Source of the DNA: a virus | Lineage: Duplodnaviria > Caudoviricetes | Virus record (IMG/VR): IMGVR_UViG_3300020037_002952 | Location: 32,001 to 96,000 of that record | DNA length: 64,000 bases | Direction: 5' to 3' (one strand) | Shown here: piece after piece, positions 43,940 to 58,336 of the stretch | Numbering within the stretch: the stretch's first letter is position 1 | How the letters are laid out: the number at the start of each line of letters is the position of its first letter | The notes under the pieces: model-generated | What the model was told of the DNA's origin: nothing | What the model saw: only the letters and a program-made list of their open reading frames with translations | The model's database searches: none | Program-made: the position numbers and the translations under genes

Positions 43940-44734
43940 TCAAACACTGAGGAATGCCTCTAGCTCTTTCGCCAGATCAAAATCATCTGTCTGCTCTGGC
44001 TTAGCATCCAGAAGACCCACAGAACCGCCCTGCAAGCTCACTAGACGCTCTACAACGACATCCTTGTAGGAGGATGGCTCAAACGACTCCAAAAGCTTCC
44101 TAGACGCCTTCACGGCTGTCTCACGCAATTCGGGCGCAAGTCCCGGTGTAGCAAAGTCAAACTGATTAAGATTCTCAGGATACAACTGCTTTTGAACAAT
44201 GATATGGCCCTGATACAAGCTGAGACGGAAAAGTCCCTCGTAGCTCTGAAGATTACATTCACCGATCAAAGCGATATCTCTATTCTCTTGCAGAACCGCA
44301 TTGATAAAGTCATGCCACTTCAAGTTGATCGGATCGTCAATAATCTTTTTGCCCTTTTTGATAATCGGCTGGAATACATAAGCGTTATTATCAGAAGGGA
44401 AAATATACTGTGAGATAGCATCAACACTATGAACGGTAAGATTCAAAGTATTGAGTGGGAGCTTAGACTCTTTTGCTTTCACCACATCCTCAATTGGAAC
44501 CGGCTCAAGTTCGCCATCAACAATTCTAGCCCGACCAAGATCTTCACGATCATAAATCTTGCCATTCTCATCAATGTAAACCTGTCGAACAGGCTTCGCA
44601 TCAGGAGTGCAGTATTTTAGTTCTGCTTCCTTCGGCTTAGATGCTCGGAGAGAAACGAGTCGTCCAGTTGTTGTGGCTGGACCGAGACGCATTGTAAAAT
44701 CTGAACAGTATGCTTTTGGTAGTTTTGTTTCCAT
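43940..44734 (-). CDS. ku: Ku-like DNA end-binding protein
   Basis: N-terminal beta strand, VRQVYIDENGKIYDREDLGRA bridge region, FEPSSYKD and DLAKELEAFL correspond to bacterial Ku F.P..Y.D and DLM.AL..S motifs. Confidence 0.7.
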   Translation of the reverse strand: METKLPKAYCSDFTMRLGPATTTGRLVSLRASKPKEAELKYCTPDAKPVRQVYIDENGKIYDREDLGRARIVDGELEPVPIEDVVKAKESKLPLNTLNLTVHSVDAISQYIFPSDNNAYVFQPIIKKGKKIIDDPINLKWHDFINAVLQENRDIALIGECNLQSYEGLFRLSLYQGHIIVQKQLYPENLNQFDFATPGLAPELRETAVKASRKLLESFEPSSYKDVVVERLVSLQGGSVGLLDAKPEQTDDFDLAKELEAFLSV

Positions 44735-46057: not shown

Positions 46058-46284
46058 TCGGTTTCATCTTTCTTTTTGGAATTCTTTAGTTGGTCAAATG
46101 GCCAAACGTCATGATGTAAAAAGTGTCTGCTTGGAACTGAGGGGAGCCAATCAAGATCATTAATAATCTCCTCAACATCTCCACAGCTACACCAGATTTT
46201 TATAATGGGATCTTCCTCTGAGTCCGCCTCAGGAATAAAAAGATACTCGTATTTAAATTCGTGATGTTCTGCTACAGCACTCAT
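46054..46284 (-). CDS. Hypothetical protein
   Basis: Packed ORF with CSCG. Confidence 0.6.
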   Translation of the reverse strand: MSAVAEHHEFKYEYLFIPEADSEEDPIIKIWCSCGDVEEIINDLDWLPSVPSRHFLHHDVWPFDQLKNSKKKDETE

Positions 46285-46850
46285 GAATGAGCACTCTTCA
46301 AAACACAAACCTGTGAGTATCCATCAGACGGAACATCTACTCCGCCAGCTTTCTTTCCAGTGAAGCATAGCCCTTGGATAATTGTTCCATCTGCTACAGT
46401 AATAACGTCAGCTTTAATAGTTGAACTAAGATTAAGACTTGTAACAAACCTAGCTGCCCTCTCCCGATAATCAGGAGAAGACGATTGATCAGCATGGACA
46501 ACGATTAGAGTCCTATGTGATCTTGGGGGTGAGTTAAGAATAGGACCCTTAAACCCATTGTCTAATTTCTCTTTAAGAATCTGAAAATTCTTGATTGCAT
46601 CATTTTCTGCCATAACTTCTTCTTCTTTCGTCGGGTATGCAATATAGTTTGCTAACGGATGGTTTTTGGTGTAATAAGTGTTTGATGCATTTATCCACTC
46701 TGATGGTCCCTTATAATCGCCGTAAGATACTGAGGCTTTTGCTATACCATCTAATGTTAGCCATTTAGTTGGGGTTACGTCAGACTCTGTAGCCACCCAT
46801 GCCACTCCAATGCCTTCTTCTTTTTCTTCTTCGTTTATGTTGTCTTCCAT
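46281..46850 (-). CDS. Hypothetical protein
   Basis: Packed ORF. Confidence 0.6.
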   Translation of the reverse strand: MEDNINEEEKEEGIGVAWVATESDVTPTKWLTLDGIAKASVSYGDYKGPSEWINASNTYYTKNHPLANYIAYPTKEEEVMAENDAIKNFQILKEKLDNGFKGPILNSPPRSHRTLIVVHADQSSSPDYRERAARFVTSLNLSSTIKADVITVADGTIIQGLCFTGKKAGGVDVPSDGYSQVCVLKSAHS

Positions 46851-47751: not shown

Positions 47752-49701
47752 TTAAATTTTCCCCGTAACGTATTTGTAGTAAAGGAAAGTCATCTTATTA
47801 GCAAGTAGTTTGCCCTGTTCAATTGTAAAGTCCTTTGGTAGGTATCCTGAATAACAAGTCAGTGCATATCCACTATTAAAATCCAATGTGAATTTAATGA
47901 ATTTACCCTTGTTATGTTCTTCTAACATTAGGTTAGAAACTTTATATCCAACTTTAGGAGTCTTACCCGTGTACGCATCGATACTAGAGTCAGGCTTAAT
48001 GGTGTGATTATTTCCAAAAGTCATTGCTTGACTACCCTGTGTTACGGTGTTCATAATCGGCCACAGGTCTGTCGGCTTACCGGAGGAAGTTTCATCAGAC
48101 TTCTTCTTCTTAACAATCTTGCTTGCTTCTGGGAGAAGATCGATCTGTTCCAGAATAAGATATCCAGCATATGCAATAGCGCTAAACCAAGCATAGCCAG
48201 CCTTGTAGATATCCTTGGTTTTATATTTCACACCAAGTCCATTGATTAAGCCCTGCACCACAAAGGTATTTCCATCGCCAGACCACGTAGTGACACCGTA
48301 ACACTTTGCGTCAACTTCCTCTGGTATTTTCCCTCCGTAAAAGACTGGATCAATATTAATATACCCAATGGAAAGACTGGGCATGTCTACACCACCAACC
48401 CACTTACTCACGCCTTCGGGCAATGGATCTAGATTATGATAGACATGGGACTTGCCTTGTTGGAAAGACAAGTCGAGAGGATCAGGAAAATTTGGCGCTG
48501 GCATTAAATCTAGGTTGTTGAAAGTCCCTAGCTCGGGTGGGTATAGCGTATCAGCAACCTTGTATAGCTTGTCACTATCTTTGTATAGCGTGTCAGCAAC
48601 AATTTTATCATCTTCCTCTTCCCAATTAATTGTAGAAGAAAAAGACTCAACGATTATTGGCTTGGGCTTTTCTTGAATCGCCCCGTCCCATTTTCCCTGG
48701 ACAGCAAACCCAGAATTAGTAGCTAGAGCAAAATAATCACCAAGAAGCTTTTGAACGCCAGTTGAAGCGTGAGCGTGTAGTGTATTAAGATCAACAGGGT
48801 TGGCTGCGTGAGCAGTCAGAACTGTATTCTGCATGTAGTTATCATAGATAGCATCAGTTGAAGCTCCCGAGCGACCTTTACGATGGTTAGCCCAGTTCAA
48901 TTTATTAAGAATACACCCGTTGTTATGTTCCAGCGAGAAAACTCTATCAACAAAAAGTTGCTTAGTAGTAAACTCGTCGGGACCAAGAGTAAATAGCTCT
49001 CTCTCTCGTAGGATGTCGGCAGCGTTTGCCCAAGGAGGACCACAATAACCACCACCACCACACTCTCGGAAATATTTTGCCATTACCGCCAATGCATCCG
49101 GTCCCTCTTTTTCAAAGATATGAAACCATCGCGTCCAAGCAGTACGACGATTACCTCCATAATAGCCGTGGACACCAATAGCTTGATGATGTCGCAACTC
49201 ACCGCCACAAGCGAGGTGAATATATTGACGGAAGGATTCATCAAGAAAGTTCACATGAGTTACAAACTTATCGTTAGCTTCGCCAGCAATTTCTGTAAGT
49301 TTATAGATCGGGTTATTAGTTCTTTCAATAGAGAACTCTTTGATCCTGGTATTGATAACCTTCTTTGTCAACTGCAAAGTTGTCCCCGCTGCCATGACTT
49401 CTTCATTTGATGGGATCACAGATGTATCAAAGTGGACGAAAGAGTTGGTAGAGATACCATAAAGAAGGTAATAATCTGCCGCCGCTACAGCGGGATCAAT
49501 CTTCTCGTTATTGACTCCATTCCAAACCTTTTTCCAGGAGTCTTTCTTACTAGTATCAATAAGCCATTTGTCGTCTAGATGTGACATATCCCAAGGGAAG
49601 TTATATGACGTGCCACCACCTTCCGTTGACTGTTCTTCTTCTGCTTCTTCTAGACATTCCTCGCACTCGCAATAATCATCATCATAATCGTCTTCATGCA
49701 T
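47752..49701 (-). CDS. Large hypothetical protein (GGELRH / GYCGPPW / HNNG motifs), partner of truncated PPDK
   Basis: 649 aa; 8-nt overlap with upstream phosphatase gene; acidic Cys-containing N-terminus. Confidence 0.8.
   Translation of the reverse strand: MHEDDYDDDYCECEECLEEAEEEQSTEGGGTSYNFPWDMSHLDDKWLIDTSKKDSWKKVWNGVNNEKIDPAVAAADYYLLYGISTNSFVHFDTSVIPSNEEVMAAGTTLQLTKKVINTRIKEFSIERTNNPIYKLTEIAGEANDKFVTHVNFLDESFRQYIHLACGGELRHHQAIGVHGYYGGNRRTAWTRWFHIFEKEGPDALAVMAKYFRECGGGGYCGPPWANAADILRERELFTLGPDEFTTKQLFVDRVFSLEHNNGCILNKLNWANHRKGRSGASTDAIYDNYMQNTVLTAHAANPVDLNTLHAHASTGVQKLLGDYFALATNSGFAVQGKWDGAIQEKPKPIIVESFSSTINWEEEDDKIVADTLYKDSDKLYKVADTLYPPELGTFNNLDLMPAPNFPDPLDLSFQQGKSHVYHNLDPLPEGVSKWVGGVDMPSLSIGYINIDPVFYGGKIPEEVDAKCYGVTTWSGDGNTFVVQGLINGLGVKYKTKDIYKAGYAWFSAIAYAGYLILEQIDLLPEASKIVKKKKSDETSSGKPTDLWPIMNTVTQGSQAMTFGNNHTIKPDSSIDAYTGKTPKVGYKVSNLMLEEHNKGKFIKFTLDFNSGYALTCYSGYLPKDFTIEQGKLLANKMTFLYYKYVTGKI
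48538..48600 (-). repeat. Three imperfect 21-nt tandem repeats (VADTLYK DSDKLYK VADTLYP)
   Basis: GTTGCTGACACGCTATACAAA / GATAGTGACAAGCTATACAAG / GTTGCTGATACGCTATACCCA on - strand. Confidence 0.85.
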
Positions 49702-51748
49702 TTGAATCTACCTCTTTGTCTGTGTCAGGAGTATCTTCCTGGAATTCAATAACTTTTGCTTCGTTGTATTCTGCTGGGGTTGGGTAAACCTTTTCGATAA
49801 GATACAAAGTCATCTTACTTTCGTGCTGACTCTGGGTCTTCTTTTTGCGGTAGCCAGCAAGATCCTCTTCCCACCATTTACATTCTTCTTGATGCCAAAT
49901 ACATTCCCTATGATCCATCCGCAACATGGCGAAGTGTTCATATGGTTGACACGTATGGTTAGTATCGTTTGTTAGCTCAACGCCACCATATTCAAGCTCG
50001 TAATCAGACAGCTTATTAACAGCCGCATTCTTAGCCCAAGCCTGTTGGTTCTTACCGTAATCATTAACATCAATAGTAAATCGTTTACAATCCATCTTAT
50101 GCTCACACATTCTGTGACCACGGAGATACATTGCAAGGTGCGTTGTAAGAGTGCAAACCTTAGGATTCTTACTTGCGTTTGGAGTGTATGTAGGAGCAGC
50201 GGGCTCTTCTGGGACAGGAGTCTTAAAGAAGTAACCAGCAGCATAAGCTACAAACCATTCTTGCTTTTTGGTTTCAATAGCGTGTTCACAGTAATTCTTC
50301 CAAACAAACTGATGGCACTCGGTCGCTGAGACTTTGCCATCCTTGGATAGAAGATACATGATAGCTAGAATTGTTCCGGTTCTACCATGAGCGCCGATAC
50401 ATCCGATATCAATATCTTCACCGTTAACAGCACGCTCATAAGCGCTCTTGATCTGCTCTAGCGCCAAATCATAATCGCTGGGCAAGCTCATGTCTGGCCA
50501 AGCGATAAACTCATTACGCCAAGTGCAAATACGGTTCCAACCAGAATCAGCGTACAGTCCAAATCCTGGTTTGATATTCTGAGCTTTCAAACCATGTGAA
50601 TCTCTGCTTGCCGTAGTATGAACAATTACTCCGTTGCCCAATGTTACTTTATGATGGACGTGAGTGCAATTTTTATACCAAGATTGATTAACAGCGCCCG
50701 CATTGTTATTAGGTGTTGTTGTTGACGGTGTTGATGATGCTGACTTTTTCTTTGAGAATGTCTCGTTCGATAGAAGATCGCCGTACTCCTCTTCCCAAGG
50801 ATCGTAAATGTCAAAGTCATCATCATCAAAGTTAGACATATATCCTTTGGAATAATTTGTATTATCATCATCAAAATTGAATGTCTGCTCCTGAGATAGC
50901 TCAAAGATTTTATCTATAATAACATCTTTCTCTACCTGAACATAGGCTAGCTTACGTCGATTTGCATCGTCTTGTGGTAGAGCAGCCTTGTTGTTGAGTT
51001 CGATGATTCGAATTACTTCAGCATATTTCTGAATAAGATCCTGCACTTCATCAAGTCGCTCATCCAACACTGATGTTCCAGCTTGAATAATCTGAAGCTC
51101 TTCTTCAACATCATATTGGATTCGCAACAGGGAACGCAAAGCAGAAACCTCTGGGTCACCCCACTTTTCGTCACTCTTTATTCTTAGGATACCTTGTTCG
51201 ATTGCTCCTAGACGCTCCCATGCTTCTTCGTTATCTTCTTCGTTATCTTCCTCCATATCATCAACCTTATCTACTTCTAAGAAATGGGCAATAGTTTTAT
51301 AAAAGTCTAAAAACTCTTGCGCCTCAAGTCGGATCGCTTTGATCTTATTGCTAAGTGTTTGTGCTTTCGCATCATCTTCTGCATTTTTATGCTCTAGGGT
51401 TAGTTCTGTATCTTCTTTTTGTAATGCGGCTATCTTCGTTGAAAGGAATCGCATGACAGAAGCTGGCTTATCTAGATCTTCTTCATAATTAAATCCAGAA
51501 TACCTTATCCCACTAACCGCCCAAGCCCAACCAGATTCACGTAACCCTTCACGTAGCTTGATGAAAGACGTGTAGTCCTGATCATACAAAATTTTCCAAT
51601 CATTAAAATTAGAAAAAATATCATCGATGGTCGCAGTTTCCACATAGTCATTCTGCAATTTCTTTGCAAGTGCAGCCATTTTACGCTTATGGACGCTTTC
51701 TTGTTTTATTGACCGCTGAGTTTTCTTCTTTGTTGCAGTTGAAGCCAT
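49694..51748 (-). CDS. Multidomain protein with CX5R tyrosine/dual-specificity phosphatase domain
   Basis: WPDMSLP acid loop, IGCIGAHGRTGT P-loop, AIET..Q Q-loop; N-terminal coiled coil; two C-terminal Cys/His repeats; TGATG coupling to upstream gene. Confidence 0.85.
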   Translation of the reverse strand: MASTATKKKTQRSIKQESVHKRKMAALAKKLQNDYVETATIDDIFSNFNDWKILYDQDYTSFIKLREGLRESGWAWAVSGIRYSGFNYEEDLDKPASVMRFLSTKIAALQKEDTELTLEHKNAEDDAKAQTLSNKIKAIRLEAQEFLDFYKTIAHFLEVDKVDDMEEDNEEDNEEAWERLGAIEQGILRIKSDEKWGDPEVSALRSLLRIQYDVEEELQIIQAGTSVLDERLDEVQDLIQKYAEVIRIIELNNKAALPQDDANRRKLAYVQVEKDVIIDKIFELSQEQTFNFDDDNTNYSKGYMSNFDDDDFDIYDPWEEEYGDLLSNETFSKKKSASSTPSTTTPNNNAGAVNQSWYKNCTHVHHKVTLGNGVIVHTTASRDSHGLKAQNIKPGFGLYADSGWNRICTWRNEFIAWPDMSLPSDYDLALEQIKSAYERAVNGEDIDIGCIGAHGRTGTILAIMYLLSKDGKVSATECHQFVWKNYCEHAIETKKQEWFVAYAAGYFFKTPVPEEPAAPTYTPNASKNPKVCTLTTHLAMYLRGHRMCEHKMDCKRFTIDVNDYGKNQQAWAKNAAVNKLSDYELEYGGVELTNDTNHTCQPYEHFAMLRMDHRECIWHQEECKWWEEDLAGYRKKKTQSQHESKMTLYLIEKVYPTPAEYNEAKVIEFQEDTPDTDKEVDSNA

Positions 51749-53259
51749 CACATCCACACTTCCCCGGTCTTGCCGTTGATCTTAATAAGATTGCCGGACT
51801 CATAGGTCTGACCTTTACAAACAAAACCTTCATCTGTAACATCTGTGATTTCTTTGAAGCCAACAACACAGGAAATATCCCATGAGCGAGCAATCACTAC
51901 AGCGTGGCAAACGCCGCCACCCTTAGAAGTGAGGATACCAACAGCATTTTTCATCTGTGGAACATCATCCGGAGCGGTATCTTTTGCTACGTAAATGTAT
52001 GCTTCTTTCGCTGCAAAGTAGGCGTCAGCCTGCTCGTGATTCGTAGCAATTTTACCAACAACACAATTATCTGTTGCGCCTAGACCCTTGCCCACAAAGG
52101 CTAGAGAACCAGGATCTTGTGCTCCTAAGTCAGAAGCAGGAAGCAACTTGATAAATCTTTGGGTTGCTTCTTCTACAGAGATTTCTCCTTCACGATTCAT
52201 GTCAAGAATAGTTCTGACACTAGCATTACGTGATCGCTTAGCTATACGCCACTGGAGAAACCAAAGCTCGCCATTTTCGATCGTAAACTCTACGTCAAGA
52301 ATATCACGATGCTTTTGGTAAAGTTTACCAATACCAGCCTGCAAAGCCTTACCAGCAACAGCAAGATCTTTGTCATGCAGAATGTCGTTGATCGGCTGTA
52401 CGTCATGTGTACCAGCTACAACATCTTCTCCCTGAGCAAGCTTACGATAATCACCATACCACTGCTTTACTCCCGAAGAAGGATTATGAGTAAACACAAC
52501 GCCGGTAGCACTCTGAGGATTCAAGTTACCAAAAACCATCCGTTGCACAGTGGCAGATGTCCCCATCTTATGATCAATTCCCTCAATCTCCCGATACTTG
52601 TAAGCTTTCTCGCCGAACCATGAACTAAAGACTGCATTGCAAGACTCTAGTAACTGAATCTTCGGCGAAGTAGGAAACTGCTCTCCAGTCTCTTCGATAT
52701 AAACATCATCGAAAAGATTGATAACATGCTCAAGTCCTTGGACCGGAAGATCGCTCCCCCAAAAAACAGTTGCAGCATCATAGATATCACTGAATCTCTT
52801 CGGCGCAATCCCCTTCACTGTAACGCCATACATTTGGATAAGTCGGCGGTAACAGTCAAGTCCAAATTCTGGAGTCGCTTTATAATACTCAACAAAGTTG
52901 TCAAGATTATCAAGCGTCAAACCAATGTTGAGGATAGTATCCATCATCCCTGGCATGGAGATTGGTGCGCCCGATCGAACAGAAACAATAAGCGGTGGCT
53001 TAGAATTGGTTGTTCCCCAACCAAGCCCAGAATTCTGAGCGAGATATCGAATATGAGAATCCAATGAATAAGCAAAGTTACTATGCTCGTCATACTTTTC
53101 TCCATTAGAAAAATCACGCATGAAACAATTTGAAACTAGGGCGGTAAAAGCTGGAGGAACCTTAAACCCAGCCTTTACCATTTGATTAAGATTTGCTGCC
53201 TTGCCTCCAACATCTGCGTTTGAAAGATTTGACAAACCATCTAGCGTAACAATACTCAT
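51748..53259 (-). CDS. Truncated pyruvate phosphate dikinase-like protein (ATP-grasp + phosphohistidine domain only)
   Basis: GGKAANL, VPPAF, VSVRSGAPISMPGMMDTILNIG, VQRMVFGN, AQGEDVVAG, DVEFTIENG.LW.LQ.R, GILTSKGGGVCHAVVIAR; ends after INGKTGEV with no TIM barrel. Confidence 0.92.
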   Translation of the reverse strand: MSIVTLDGLSNLSNADVGGKAANLNQMVKAGFKVPPAFTALVSNCFMRDFSNGEKYDEHSNFAYSLDSHIRYLAQNSGLGWGTTNSKPPLIVSVRSGAPISMPGMMDTILNIGLTLDNLDNFVEYYKATPEFGLDCYRRLIQMYGVTVKGIAPKRFSDIYDAATVFWGSDLPVQGLEHVINLFDDVYIEETGEQFPTSPKIQLLESCNAVFSSWFGEKAYKYREIEGIDHKMGTSATVQRMVFGNLNPQSATGVVFTHNPSSGVKQWYGDYRKLAQGEDVVAGTHDVQPINDILHDKDLAVAGKALQAGIGKLYQKHRDILDVEFTIENGELWFLQWRIAKRSRNASVRTILDMNREGEISVEEATQRFIKLLPASDLGAQDPGSLAFVGKGLGATDNCVVGKIATNHEQADAYFAAKEAYIYVAKDTAPDDVPQMKNAVGILTSKGGGVCHAVVIARSWDISCVVGFKEITDVTDEGFVCKGQTYESGNLIKINGKTGEVWM

Positions 53260-53534
53260 TCTTCATCACCTTCTTTATTCATCATCTGAAGATTCGTTGA
53301 CATAAAATACTTCTCTAGAGCTTCCTTCGGATCTTTCTCGCCCGTAACAGCGGCAGAAAAGTAGAAGAAGTGCAGGAACCATCTGATGTTCCAGCGTAGA
53401 ATTCTTTGCAGATCTTCTCTCGTGTAATCAGCGTATAGCATTTCTCTTGTCTCTTTATCATCCTGAGACATCGCTGTGATTATCTCCATGAGAGCATGAA
53501 TTGCTTCTTCTTCTGTCTTAAGTGTTAGTGCCAT
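53256..53534 (-). CDS. Hypothetical protein
   Basis: ATGA-coupled to PPDK-like gene. Confidence 0.7.
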   Translation of the reverse strand: MALTLKTEEEAIHALMEIITAMSQDDKETREMLYADYTREDLQRILRWNIRWFLHFFYFSAAVTGEKDPKEALEKYFMSTNLQMMNKEGDEE

Positions 53535-54289: not shown

Positions 54290-54702
54290 TAGTTGCTCGT
54301 TTCTGGTAGGTAGTGAAGAGTGTATGTTAGATACGTAACAAATTTATCAAGACTAACAAATCTGGTGCCATAGGTGTTCTTCGGACCTTCTGATGTTACA
54401 ATAATTTCAACAAGGCAGCCAAGGCTGGTCTTATAGCTAAAAATAGAACCGAGGGGTAGGTTTTGAAGTTCTTTAGCAGGGACAATTCGCCCGACTTTCA
54501 AAGACTCCGGTGGGGTTTCTGGCAAATACTGAACCGTATAATCAATGGAGTATGGAAGTTCAAGGTGTAGCTTTAGATCGAATGCATCCCAACCCAACTT
54601 AGTGCTAATCCAAGTTTTCTTCCCGCAAGTAATAATGCTTCCAATGGGGAAGCCGTCAACATTTGTCATTGTGTCCCCGACCTTAGTGTCTTTGTTATAC
54701 AT
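54289..54702 (-). CDS. Hypothetical protein, two-repeat 'LP..YLP' paralog family
   Basis: KVGD...FPIGSII...VQYLPE / KVGR...LPLGSIF...LHYLPE. Confidence 0.7.
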   Translation of the reverse strand: MYNKDTKVGDTMTNVDGFPIGSIITCGKKTWISTKLGWDAFDLKLHLELPYSIDYTVQYLPETPPESLKVGRIVPAKELQNLPLGSIFSYKTSLGCLVEIIVTSEGPKNTYGTRFVSLDKFVTYLTYTLHYLPETSN

Positions 54703-55744
54703 TTTGCTCCTTAGGTTCTAGTTGTTTCCAAATCATTTTGCTATAATCTTTCCCATCTAACATTGCAAACAGGATGGATTTGTTATCTTTCTTCACTGCT
54801 TTTTGGGCAAACTTTTTGCGGCTTGTTTTAAACTCACGAAGATCATGGAAGTCTAGTTTCGCCTGAGCTTCAATCTCCGAATAAGCAAAGGTTAAATCAG
54901 TTTGGATCTGATGTACCAGTTCATAAAACTCATCTGGTACAGTATCAAGAACTTTAAGAAAATCAATTCCTTCACTCATCGCCGCCCAAACTTTCTTCGG
55001 CGAGAAGTTCGTAATGATTCCGTGGAGCCGAACGTACTCTTCTTCTTTCAGTTTCAAAAGTTGAAGTCCATCCTTCGGGTCAAGGAATCTAAACACGTAT
55101 CCTTCAAGGTTTCTTGGCGGTGCCTGAACAGCTTCCTCGATATTTCTGTACTCGAAAACTTCCGTTCTTCTACCATTCCAACCGTCTAACATTGGATTAT
55201 TCGGCCCTAGGATTGTTCCGGTGAGTATATCTACTCCACATAAAAGTACCAAATCTTCATAATTATAATTGATTACGATTCGATTTTGCTTGTATATGAT
55301 CTCAAATATTGGCGTTAGGTTTGCCGGGAATGTGTGGTCTATGGTGCGAATTTTAGTTGTCGCCCAGATAGCCTGCTCTGAACTAAAGGACCCCCTCGTA
55401 GCTATAGAGGGTTGTCCATTAGAGTCAAGATAATAAATCCCACAAGATCCATCAAGCTTATCTGTGACTTCCACGGGAGAATTATAATTTACCACGAATG
55501 GCTGTGGCTCAGACAAGTTAAAGAATTTCTTAATTGGTCTAGCTTTAATTTCTAAGCTTCCATCTAGGGCGTAGATTAGACCCCTAGATTGCAATGTTTC
55601 TGGCGTCCAAATTCTTTCATACGAGGCTTTAGCTGTATAGTTTGCTATAACAAGCTCTTCTTTTTCATGTTTCCTTATCGTAATATACCCTTCTCGGACG
55701 AATTCATGGAACTTGTCTATATCAAGTATTTCATTAAGTTTCAT
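54695..55744 (-). CDS. RNA ligase, T4 Rnl1 family
   Basis: NYT, SRGLI, ARPIKKFFN, DKLDGS, ATRGSF.SEQA, FEIIY..NRIV, EGYV, KLK.EEY. Confidence 0.93.
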   Translation of the reverse strand: MKLNEILDIDKFHEFVREGYITIRKHEKEELVIANYTAKASYERIWTPETLQSRGLIYALDGSLEIKARPIKKFFNLSEPQPFVVNYNSPVEVTDKLDGSCGIYYLDSNGQPSIATRGSFSSEQAIWATTKIRTIDHTFPANLTPIFEIIYKQNRIVINYNYEDLVLLCGVDILTGTILGPNNPMLDGWNGRRTEVFEYRNIEEAVQAPPRNLEGYVFRFLDPKDGLQLLKLKEEEYVRLHGIITNFSPKKVWAAMSEGIDFLKVLDTVPDEFYELVHQIQTDLTFAYSEIEAQAKLDFHDLREFKTSRKKFAQKAVKKDNKSILFAMLDGKDYSKMIWKQLEPKEQNV

Positions 55745-56636
55745 TGGCTTTCTCTATCTTGATTAACATTGTCTTGCCCCGTTTGTACCATAGTGGCATC
55801 CATTCTTTAAATTCTTCCAGTGTTTGGTTATATTTAATGTTGTTTACTCTTGTAGCACAAACCAGTAGATTCCCCTCTACATACCCCCTTTCAGTATCGA
55901 ATCTATCGAATGAAAGATTATCTGGTTGTGACCCGTTACCAGTTATAGATTGAACTGGAATAAGAGTATAGACACATTTAAAATCTTGAAATTCAGCTAG
56001 ATACTCCAGATATTCTGGAGATACATCAAACTCTAAACCTCTTTTTCTGGCGCTAGTTTGGAGTCCGTTATGCTTGGATGACCAGCTTCTTGGCTTTCCC
56101 AATTGACTCTTAGACTGTTTTTCGATGCAACAGCTTTTACATACCGATCTGATTTTATCCCCAGATCGGTAAAAAGACTCTATCGACTTGATTTCATCAC
56201 AATCATTGCACCGTATAGAATTTTTATCTACCCAGTTTACTCCTAGCTGGGGCCCAAATCTATTGGTGTCTAGCTTCAAGTAATCTTCCATATACTTAAG
56301 CACGGTAGAACGCCCTAATCCGTAGTCTCTCGCAATGGCCGTAACAGATTTTCCATTAGAGTGATGGGTTATAATTTCTTCCCGTAACGGATCTAGAATT
56401 GCAAAATTCTCAAGAGATATTCCTCTTCGGATACAGCCACAACTTTGGGTTTTCCCCGAAATTAAAATATCCCGTTTTCTTACAACCATCTCTCCGCATT
56501 CACATAAACAATTCCATGCTCTGCGGATGCGTTTTTTTGTTTTTCCATCTACGATTGGATCTGCTTCGTCGATCACAGTTAATTTTCCGAAAACTTTCCC
56601 TGATAGATCAGTTTCCGCTTTTGATACTCCAGCCAT
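55734..56636 (-). CDS. HNH-type homing endonuclease with HTH
   Basis: DLSGKVFGKLTV...WNCLCECG...SCGC; HTH; CNDC..CKSC; SFDRFD...GYVEGN. Confidence 0.8.
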   Translation of the reverse strand: MAGVSKAETDLSGKVFGKLTVIDEADPIVDGKTKKRIRRAWNCLCECGEMVVRKRDILISGKTQSCGCIRRGISLENFAILDPLREEIITHHSNGKSVTAIARDYGLGRSTVLKYMEDYLKLDTNRFGPQLGVNWVDKNSIRCNDCDEIKSIESFYRSGDKIRSVCKSCCIEKQSKSQLGKPRSWSSKHNGLQTSARKRGLEFDVSPEYLEYLAEFQDFKCVYTLIPVQSITGNGSQPDNLSFDRFDTERGYVEGNLLVCATRVNNIKYNQTLEEFKEWMPLWYKRGKTMLIKIEKANET

Positions 56637-57458: not shown

Positions 57459-57809
57459 TCAGTCTACTAAAGTGTATGTCGTGGTTTTTCTTGCAGGTCC
57501 GCCGAGCCAATCATAAAAAGGCATATCGCCTAGATAGTCTTGGACTGTTGGAATTCTTTGCATGTCTTCAATAACGTGCTCTTCTAAAATGTCTCGAACA
57601 GAAAGTTCTCTACCATCAGAATTCGTAAAGGATACTCCAAAAACCTGTTCGCCAATGTAAATACCAAATGAGCTATGAAGCAATGCTCTATGTCTCATGT
57701 CTGGTACGTGAGCTTTACTTGAATCCATCCAGTCATGAAATGGTAAATAGTCTTCTACTTTACCGCCGTGACGTTTCACCGAGTTTTTAGCATGAAGTAA
57801 AGGTTTCAT
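57459..57809 (-). CDS. DUF6915-like His-rich protein
   Basis: HAKNSV..GG...DY..FHDWMDSSK...RHRALLHSSFGI...EEHVIED. Confidence 0.75.
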   Translation of the reverse strand: MKPLLHAKNSVKRHGGKVEDYLPFHDWMDSSKAHVPDMRHRALLHSSFGIYIGEQVFGVSFTNSDGRELSVRDILEEHVIEDMQRIPTVQDYLGDMPFYDWLGGPARKTTTYTLVD

Positions 57810-58336
57810 AATTCATACTTCTTTGAGAATCGAATGTCAGCAACTTCTTCCAACATATCTTCGATAGTAACAACTCGCTCAACATTGAAGTCTTCAACAA
57901 TCTTTGGTAGTTCGGTCTGCATGGTTGCGAGTCGTGCAAACATCCGTTTCATTGCTTCCTCTGGCACAACTGTTCCAAGCTCCTGGCGTTGTGTAGACTT
58001 ATTCTGCGCCTCAATTACTTCACGCTTCAACGATGTTATCATCAAAGTGATTGGCTGTCCAGCGGCGGCAGTAAGAACATTCTTAAGATCCTTCGCCGTG
58101 AGATTGGTTGCGTTCAAGTAAACGTCCAAGTTATGCTGCAAACGTGTCCATACAATTGTATCAACGATCTTGAAAACTTTGCCGGTGACAGTTTGATTTG
58201 TTTGATCGCCAGTCAAGATTCGCCGGTAATGGTCAGATGACACAACAGCATCTTCTGTAATCATATCAATCTCAAGCATTCGACTTGCAAGATAATCTTT
58301 GCCGCATCCTGGCGGTCCAATAGGGATATACAACAT
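57806..58336 (-). CDS. Polynucleotide kinase-like P-loop kinase (AAA_33)
   Basis: IGPPGCGK, VSSDHYR, NATNL, VVPEEAM. Confidence 0.85.
   Translation of the reverse strand: MLYIPIGPPGCGKDYLASRMLEIDMITEDAVVSSDHYRRILTGDQTNQTVTGKVFKIVDTIVWTRLQHNLDVYLNATNLTAKDLKNVLTAAAGQPITLMITSLKREVIEAQNKSTQRQELGTVVPEEAMKRMFARLATMQTELPKIVEDFNVERVVTIEDMLEEVADIRFSKKYEL

Follow-up and report, generated by a model that had tools for sequence, protein, structure and literature searches.

What use does a phage have for the front end of a pyruvate phosphate dikinase (PPDK) that stops short of the pyruvate-binding domain? The question is raised by positions 47752-53534 of a 64,000-nucleotide stretch of viral DNA (the window), which comprises bases 32001-96000 of a 113-kb IMG/VR phage contig (G000, record IMGVR_UViG_3300020037_002952; CheckV completeness 56%). 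Three overlapping genes on the minus strand encode a dikinase front end (referred to below as K), a cysteine phosphatase (P) and a protein of 649 residues with a conserved core (C). Comparison with other phages shows the window to hold one copy of a widespread, phage-restricted module that is arranged around C, is usually completed by P, and is joined by K in two large lineages. As to what the module does, the healing of broken polynucleotide ends is the reading that we tentatively favour. A previous reading of the sequence alone (the sequence-only reading) had placed the features of the three proteins correctly, down to the histidine codon of K at 51904-51906 and the ATGA overlap that couples a 92-codon gene to it; its proposal for how C and K work together has fared less well, as described below. 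The genes and their principal parts are as follows.

51748..53259, minus strand: K, barrel-less PPDK-type dikinase front end (ATP-grasp and swivel phospho-His domains), 503 aa, from Pfam and PPDK alignment
51904..51906, minus strand: codon of the catalytic His452 of K (GGGVCH), aligned with the phospho-His of the PPDK motif GGMTSH
49694..51757, minus strand: P, multidomain cysteine phosphatase, 687 aa (phrog_17568, E 1.7e-14)
50198..50605, minus strand: protein tyrosine phosphatase (PTP) catalytic domain of P, with WPD Asp422, Cys453-X5-Arg459 and Q-loop Gln499, from invariant columns and profile alignment to solved PTPs
49808..50155, minus strand: two putative zinc modules, C-x-H-x-C-x-C (CHCC), at the C-terminus of P (C535, H540, C551 and C557 conserved, repeated once)
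47752..49701, minus strand: C, 649 aa, with an acidic N-terminus, a conserved core and a lineage-specific C-terminal half of 290 aa
48622..49584, minus strand: conserved core of C (residues 40-360), phrog_20946 family, from the HMMER family and an AlphaFold 2 (AF2) model

The three overlapping junctions read ATGA between the 92-codon gene (w92) and K, TGATG between K and P, and ATGCATGA between P and C. The likely start of P is the ATG at 51748, which overlaps the stop codon of K and gives a protein of 684 aa. A megablast search with the 5.8-kb region yielded no matches in 50,697 phage records.

Linkage of K, P and C across phages

Linkage was surveyed by tblastn and hidden Markov model searches over 101 fetched loci. 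About 70 of these lie on distantly related viral contigs of a type represented by SIO-2, DLP5 and RcZahn; they have a second P after K, P and C, and the SIO-2-type cassette lies directly upstream of DNA polymerase. A short K followed by P, C and a gene for a DUF6744 protein is the order in the window phage lineage and two neighbouring ones; C followed by P, with no K, is found in seven lineages and C alone in five. Cultivated carriers include phages of Vibrio, Stenotrophomonas, Rhizobium and Rhodobacter. The supposition that homologues of the three genes would be found together is thus borne out, both by the K-P-C(-P) loci and by the window lineage, and the linkage is far beyond chance.

Searches of whole records establish a hierarchy within the module. 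G002 and G003, both 100% complete, have C-P and no PPDK_N anywhere in the genome; in G006 and G008, which are 92% and 98% complete, C is the only one of the three genes. The existence of such genomes means that C has a function of its own and that K is an optional part. K is the first to be dispensable, P the next and C the last, and this order (C > P > K) is newly established here in complete genomes. The same four genomes weaken the proposal of the sequence-only reading that C is the acceptor module of K, supplied in trans, and no K-C fusion was found among the 150 best relatives or the 101 loci.

The family of the C core, collected by exhaustive HMMER search, numbers 420 representatives at E<=1e-3 (at least 420 clusters at 50% identity), and corresponds to phrog_20946, to which PHROGs assigns no function. 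Among 185,579 prokaryote genomes scanned for C there was a single match, a 149-kb contig of a metagenome-assembled genome in which K-P-C and Rnl1 are arranged as in the window lineage; the family is therefore essentially restricted to phages.

The three proteins

K matches PPDK_N (PF01326, E 1.4e-32) and the swivel domain of the PEP-utilizers (PF00391, E 1.3e-17), and residues 22-507 of solved PPDK (EC 2.7.9.1; structures 1KBL and 1DIK from C. symbiosum, 5JVN from a plant) are collinear with it (E 8e-85) through the ATP-grasp and the swivel phospho-His domains. It is 38-42% identical to bona fide PPDKs and keeps their nucleotide-binding motifs (GGKxANL, SVRSGAxxSMPGMMDT and AQGEDVVAG). It differs from them in the regulatory Thr beside the catalytic His, which is Cys in K, in the constant company of a phosphatase and C, and in its end: the chain stops at residue 503, immediately after the swivel domain, leaving no residues for an acceptor-binding domain. 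The TIM barrel that binds phosphoenolpyruvate (PEP) and pyruvate (PF02896) has no match elsewhere in the 113-kb contig, as far as its 56% completeness goes, and all control genomes matched. Lacking that defining feature, K is therefore not a PPDK, and the claim that it cannot by itself interconvert pyruvate and PEP stands. Judged by its sequence, it should still be able to make phosphohistidine (His~P) from ATP, and in the module it would be a PPDK-derived unit that does so with no substrate domain of its own.

About 46 clusters of barrel-less K relatives share a length of 490-517 aa, so the short form is a stable one and not an artefact of truncation. Short form, long form and cellular PPDK make up three separate clades of a tree drawn with no outgroup. 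The long-form K of SIO-2-, DLP5- and RcZahn-type phages has 640-770 aa, with an extra C-terminal domain for which no counterpart was found in the window genome by hmmsearch, or by hhalign against C, P, the DUF6744 protein, w92, w109 and w189 (probability <=2%). That the short-form lineage has no such counterpart is a newly added observation.

Reuse of the two front domains of PPDK with a different acceptor is familiar from glucan-water dikinase (GWD) and rifampicin phosphotransferase. In these enzymes, as in PEP synthase, the acceptor-binding domain is fused to the front domains, whereas none is fused in K, which also has no carbohydrate-binding module and no rifampicin-binding domain. In published phage genomes K goes by the name 'pyruvate phosphate dikinase', and at least one paper treats it as a glycolytic auxiliary metabolic gene (PMC10141217). 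If K were a true gene of that kind, complementing a host barrel or otherwise serving carbon metabolism, its degree of identity to bona fide PPDKs and its published naming as a PPDK of glycolysis would be accounted for. The absence of a PEP/pyruvate barrel from the contig, the consistent length of the clade at ~500 aa and the strict linkage of K to P and C instead of metabolic genes effectively refute that idea.

P is a larger protein than the CX5R phosphatase of the sequence-only reading had implied. The CIGAHGRTG site is there, as part of a full complement of WPD loop, P-loop and Q-loop, but the 687-aa protein also has zinc modules and an acidic N-terminus. In an alignment of P with 11 relatives the P-loop at Cys453 (C453-IGAHG-R459-T), the WPD loop (residues 420-422, with the general-acid Asp422) and Gln499 of the Q-loop are invariant. 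Against solved PTPs, a family profile brings all three loops into register at a best E of 4e-6 (the WPD and Q loops with those of PTP epsilon); these PDB matches are weak and confined to the catalytic loops. P also aligns, through the WPD loop, the CX5R P-loop with its Thr-Gly and the Q-loop, with classical and small PTPs (SsoPTP, DUSP23 and PTP-SAK), from which it differs in a catalytic domain of only ~140 aa and in the zinc modules that flank it. Its best Pfam match, a weak one (17.1 bits against a cut-off of 27), is PTP-SAK (PF22784), the dual-specificity phosphatase (DSP) domain of a 'Swiss Army Knife' protein that has been described as acting in RNA repair; on PF22785 the RcZahn paralogue reaches 33.9 bits. 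Zinc-ribbon modules decorate P, and C as well, in many lineages. In the window phage the first 360 residues of P are instead a highly acidic, helical, lineage-specific insert in the place of the relatives' N-terminal zinc ribbon, with no homologue anywhere in the data searched. On its conserved residues, P is predicted to be a complete, hydrolysis-competent phosphomonoesterase. Established PTP chemistry provides the basis for a further step: retention of the general acid Asp422 argues for an alcohol (sugar-OH) as the leaving group, not a phosphoanhydride.

Two other identities for P were tried and rejected. A lead to Nmad5 proved spurious (E 0.012; 16.1 bits against 27), lying inside the lineage-specific insert that relatives lack, and the name 'thymidylate synthase' goes back to phrog_17568, which is a mis-named PTP family. 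In RefSeq, small cysteine phosphatases of DLP5 (gp080 and gp078, L002) and SIO-2 (VPEG_00063, L003) go under 'thymidylate synthase' or 'thyX', a naming that recurs in PHROGs; all three match the PTP domain of P, not ThyA or ThyX. Both labels in circulation, the glycolytic 'pyruvate phosphate dikinase' for K and 'thymidylate synthase' for its phosphatase partner, are wrong.

Conservation in C is limited to residues ~40-360, the C-terminal 290 residues being specific to the lineage. The helical core of ~300 aa carries the family motifs E-x-R-H, GGxxW and D-R-x4-L-x-H-N-x-G-x4-K, which the window copy has as GGELRH at residue 166, GGGYCGPPW at 216 and DRVFSLEHNNG at 252. Every branch keeps GGxxW, Glu and Arg in GGELRH, and the Asp, His, Asn, Gly and Lys of the third motif without change, an enzyme-like set of residues. 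The AF2 model of the core is all-helical (predicted local distance difference test score, pLDDT, 89; predicted template modelling score, pTM, 0.87). Set against PDB structures, it gave only Foldseek E values above 1 and a best VIA-align Z of 4.6 (48,161 chains); the core profile found nothing among PDB sequences and no usable match in the ESM Atlas, and BFVD yielded only unnamed phage homologues. No Pfam domain was detected in C or in ten long relatives (these also lack a CX5R motif, and so show no fusion of C to K or P), and PADLOC found no relative in a defence system. As modelled, the core is a new fold with no detectable relative among solved structures. HEPN-like (R-x5-H in DRVFxLxH) and di-iron (ExxH in GGELRH) interpretations of its motifs found no support in the fold and were dropped. 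On a 223-kb phage contig (L101:7950-12182) a C domain forms the N-terminal part of a 1410-aa protein, the remaining ~1100 residues of which have no Pfam, PHROG or PDB match.

These properties of the three proteins bear on several accounts of the module. One takes C to be an enzyme of a new class and fold, with a novel chemistry on nucleic-acid ends or nucleotides (adding or removing a protective end group by way of a phosphorylated intermediate, for example), in which K would provide the activation from ATP and P would act as resolving phosphatase; the three would then make up a counter-defence pathway with no relation to Pnkp/Rnl repair or to known DNA hypermodification. We consider this unlikely. 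Another would have K phosphorylate a protein of host or phage, possibly C itself on an invariant His, and P reverse the mark, in the interest of host takeover or as a timing switch. P does have the WPD, CX5R and Q-loop elements, with protein Tyr phosphatases as its nearest solved relatives, there is an invariant His220 in C, and the swivel His of a PEP-utilizer, enzyme I of the phosphotransferase system, can phosphorylate proteins. Such control of protein phosphorylation is nevertheless improbable, given the complete or near-complete genomes that have C or C-P and no K, PDB matches of P that are weak and limited to the catalytic loops, neighbours that are consistently nucleic-acid enzymes, and the lack of precedent, since we know of no protein kinase of the PPDK type.

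To our knowledge, a dikinase and a DSP phosphatase have been characterised as partners only in systems of the GWD type, where GWD is joined by SEX4/LSF2 or laforin; K and P resemble these in uniting a dikinase with a CX5R phosphatase, and the GWD/SEX4 cycle acts on a polymer. A corresponding phage cycle would have K phosphorylate a polysaccharide (glycogen, capsule or wall polymer), C bind or cut it and P remove the phosphate, and among the residues that are invariant in C there are many Trp, Tyr and Phe along with Glu and Asp, as in carbohydrate-active enzymes. We regard it as very improbable all the same: no carbohydrate-binding module or glycoside-hydrolase family was found with Pfam, the fold of C matches no carbohydrate-active enzyme, and the neighbouring genes are those of replication and repair, not of lysis or tails.

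Gene neighbourhoods and a proposed role in polynucleotide end-healing

Genes for C that stand alone, with no K or P, are found in RNA-repair neighbourhoods, in four different gene orders. In L098 an HAD-like nucleotidase (phrog_2643), an 86-aa gene, a P-loop polynucleotide kinase (PNK; phrog_505, E 8e-18), C, a 136-aa gene and an RNA ligase (PF09414) follow one another; in L012 a solitary C lies 4 nt upstream of Rnl1; in L011 a CCA-adding enzyme is directly upstream of C; in L099 RNA ligases flank C on either side and a PNK-like P-loop kinase is the second gene upstream of it. The P-loop kinase of L098 and L099 is on the side that K holds in the window. This embedding of solitary C in RNA-repair neighbourhoods is newly added here. 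On a rough estimate (~3 RNA-repair genes in a phage of ~200 genes), the chance of landing within two genes of one is a few per cent per lineage, and four independent arrangements are very unlikely to have arisen by chance.

In the window and its relatives Rnl1 and an AAA_33 kinase are upstream of the module and a ligase downstream. K, P and C belong to a tight, co-directional minus-strand array that runs from Rnl1 through small genes (including w109 and w92) to K, P, C, the DUF6744 gene, w189, a RuvB-like ATPase and a minimal ligase; no convincing terminator was found inside it. The neighbours referred to are as follows.

57806..58336, minus strand: P-loop AAA_33 (polynucleotide-kinase-like) protein (PF13671, E 1.8e-12), syntenic
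54695..55744, minus strand: Rnl1-type RNA ligase, in the orientation of K and 1.4 kb upstream of it (PF09511, E 3.7e-10), syntenic in L004-L006 and L013
53538..53867, minus strand: w109, 109-aa gene upstream of w92, conserved only within its own phage lineage
53256..53534, minus strand: w92, 92-aa gene, ATGA-coupled to K, conserved only within its own phage lineage
46835..47674, minus strand: DUF6744 protein, 279 aa (PF20529, E 3.2e-17; 62.9 bits against a cut-off of 27)
46281..46850, minus strand: w189, conserved 189-aa gene after the DUF6744 gene, with homologues in the same position in L004-L007, L013, L095 and L096

The sequence-only reading had offered a host protein, a nucleotide signal or a nucleic-acid end as the target; among these, gene context favours the nucleic-acid end. 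The account that we prefer, while holding it as possible and short of probable, is that the module heals polynucleotide ends, K and P standing in for the P-loop kinase and the HAD phosphatase that normally do this work, and C being the core that processes or presents the end. The substrate would most likely be RNA or tRNA that has been cut by host nucleases. C would bind the damaged end and process it, perhaps by opening a 2',3'-cyclic phosphate, or present it to K and P. ATP would load the swivel His452 of K, which would then phosphorylate the 5'-OH end, and P would remove a 3' or 2' phosphate through a thiophosphate intermediate at Cys453, with Asp422 as general acid. A ligase would seal the break; in the window phage this could be the Rnl1 encoded just upstream. 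The proteins themselves offer further support, in the general acid retained by P, which suits a sugar-OH leaving group, in its weak PTP-SAK match and in the zinc-ribbon modules that P and C carry in many lineages.

The model for this scheme is tRNA repair by T4 Pnkp and Rnl1, together with the modular RNA-repair systems. The likeness consists in the proposed kinase-phosphatase-ligase logic, in the location of the module near Rnl1 and, in other phages, in the occurrence of C with a P-loop PNK on one side and an RNA ligase on the other. The differences are considerable: K is of the dikinase type (ATP-grasp and His), not a P-loop kinase, P is a Cys-PTP and not an HAD enzyme (DxDxT), C has no T4 counterpart, and most K-P-C carriers encode no RNA ligase. 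Any resemblance of K and P to T4 Pnkp would be one of function only, the two proteins being non-orthologous replacements of its P-loop kinase and HAD phosphatase.

A number of observations weigh against end-healing. Rnl1, PF09414 ligases and RtcB are all missing from three complete SIO-2-type genomes, only one of which has a DNA ligase, so that most K-P-C carriers would have to depend on host ligases. Within 10 kb of any SIO-2-type or C-P locus there is no RNA-repair gene; the SIO-2-type cassette adjoins DNA polymerase, and C-P pairs adjoin the single-stranded DNA-binding protein (SSB) or primase. The window phage already encodes a P-loop PNK-like kinase, which would make K redundant. The C core is not basic (pI 6.5), and neither Foldseek nor VIA-align matched its fold to a known RNA-end enzyme; among solved structures, P comes closest to protein Tyr phosphatases.

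Some of the same facts suit a role in the modification of DNA or nucleotides, in which K would activate a hydroxyl on a base, sugar or nucleotide, C would replace or transfer the activated group and P would trim leftover phosphate, so as to shield phage DNA from restriction. The place of the cassette directly upstream of DNA polymerase in ~70 SIO-2-type loci, the SSB or primase beside C-P pairs and the weak Nmad5 match in P point that way, and the DNA of one carrier phage, DLP3, resists all 15 of the 15 restriction enzymes tested (PMC7326821). The thymidine hypermodification clusters (5-HMUDK with aGPT-Pplase, and Nmad) likewise set a phage kinase beside unassigned helical enzymes near replication genes. 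In contrast to those clusters, no hydroxymethylase, P-loop 5-HMUDK or aGPT-Pplase is detectable with K-P-C. ThyA- and ThyX-like hydroxymethylases are missing, PF00303 and PF02511 from the window contig (to the extent of its 56% completeness) and PF00303 from the complete RcZahn, DLP5 and SIO-2 genomes; K, P and C match neither aGPT-Pplase nor any other known modification family above threshold; the Nmad5 match is itself below threshold, in the insert peculiar to one lineage; the resistance of DLP3 is not tied to K, P or C genes; and solitary C genes are found inside RNA-repair operons. We think a modification pathway unlikely on balance, if worth keeping in view alongside the end-healing reading.

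Other genes of the array, and what the module may mean

The DUF6744 gene follows C in L004-L007, L013, L095 and L096 and is thus the conserved fourth gene of the short-form lineages. The AF2 model of its product (pLDDT 93) has an alpha/beta N-terminal part and then a three-helix bundle, for which the PDB returned generic three-helix-bundle matches only, none informative; it is unrelated to the product of the gene after the SIO-2-type cassette (hhalign probability 0.2%).

Several side observations concern the surrounding genes. A 300-aa open reading frame with a resolvase-type helix-turn-helix (HTH_7; 55734-56636) overlaps the start of the Rnl1 gene and may be a mobile endonuclease-like insertion. 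The Rnl1-type ligase of L012 (8601-10160) is interrupted by an intein (Intein_splicing and Hint), and in the repair cluster of a relative (L096:10545-12458) the RuvB-like ATPase is split by a LAGLIDADG-type insert that is probably also an intein. In a relative of the window phage, L005:1874-4152 encodes a NUDIX protein, a NAMPT-like NAPRTase and an Acb5-family protein near the module, candidate genes of NAD salvage or anti-defence. The 264-aa gene at 43940-44734 has no Pfam and no PADLOC match, and a 'Ku-like' label for it was unconfirmed.

Full-text literature searches found no description of a phage system of this kind, in keeping with the statement of the sequence-only reading that none has been characterised. 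The module is nonetheless common, with at least 420 clusters of C, ~70 contigs with K-P-C-P and cultivated phages among its carriers. A PPDK front end that has no fused acceptor domain would be a new use of the swivel-His mechanism. If the module does heal ends, K and P would constitute a third, unrelated kinase/phosphatase pair for RNA repair, with host nucleases as the selective pressure; if it modifies DNA, the route would be a new one. The cultivated carrier phages make both of these readings directly testable.

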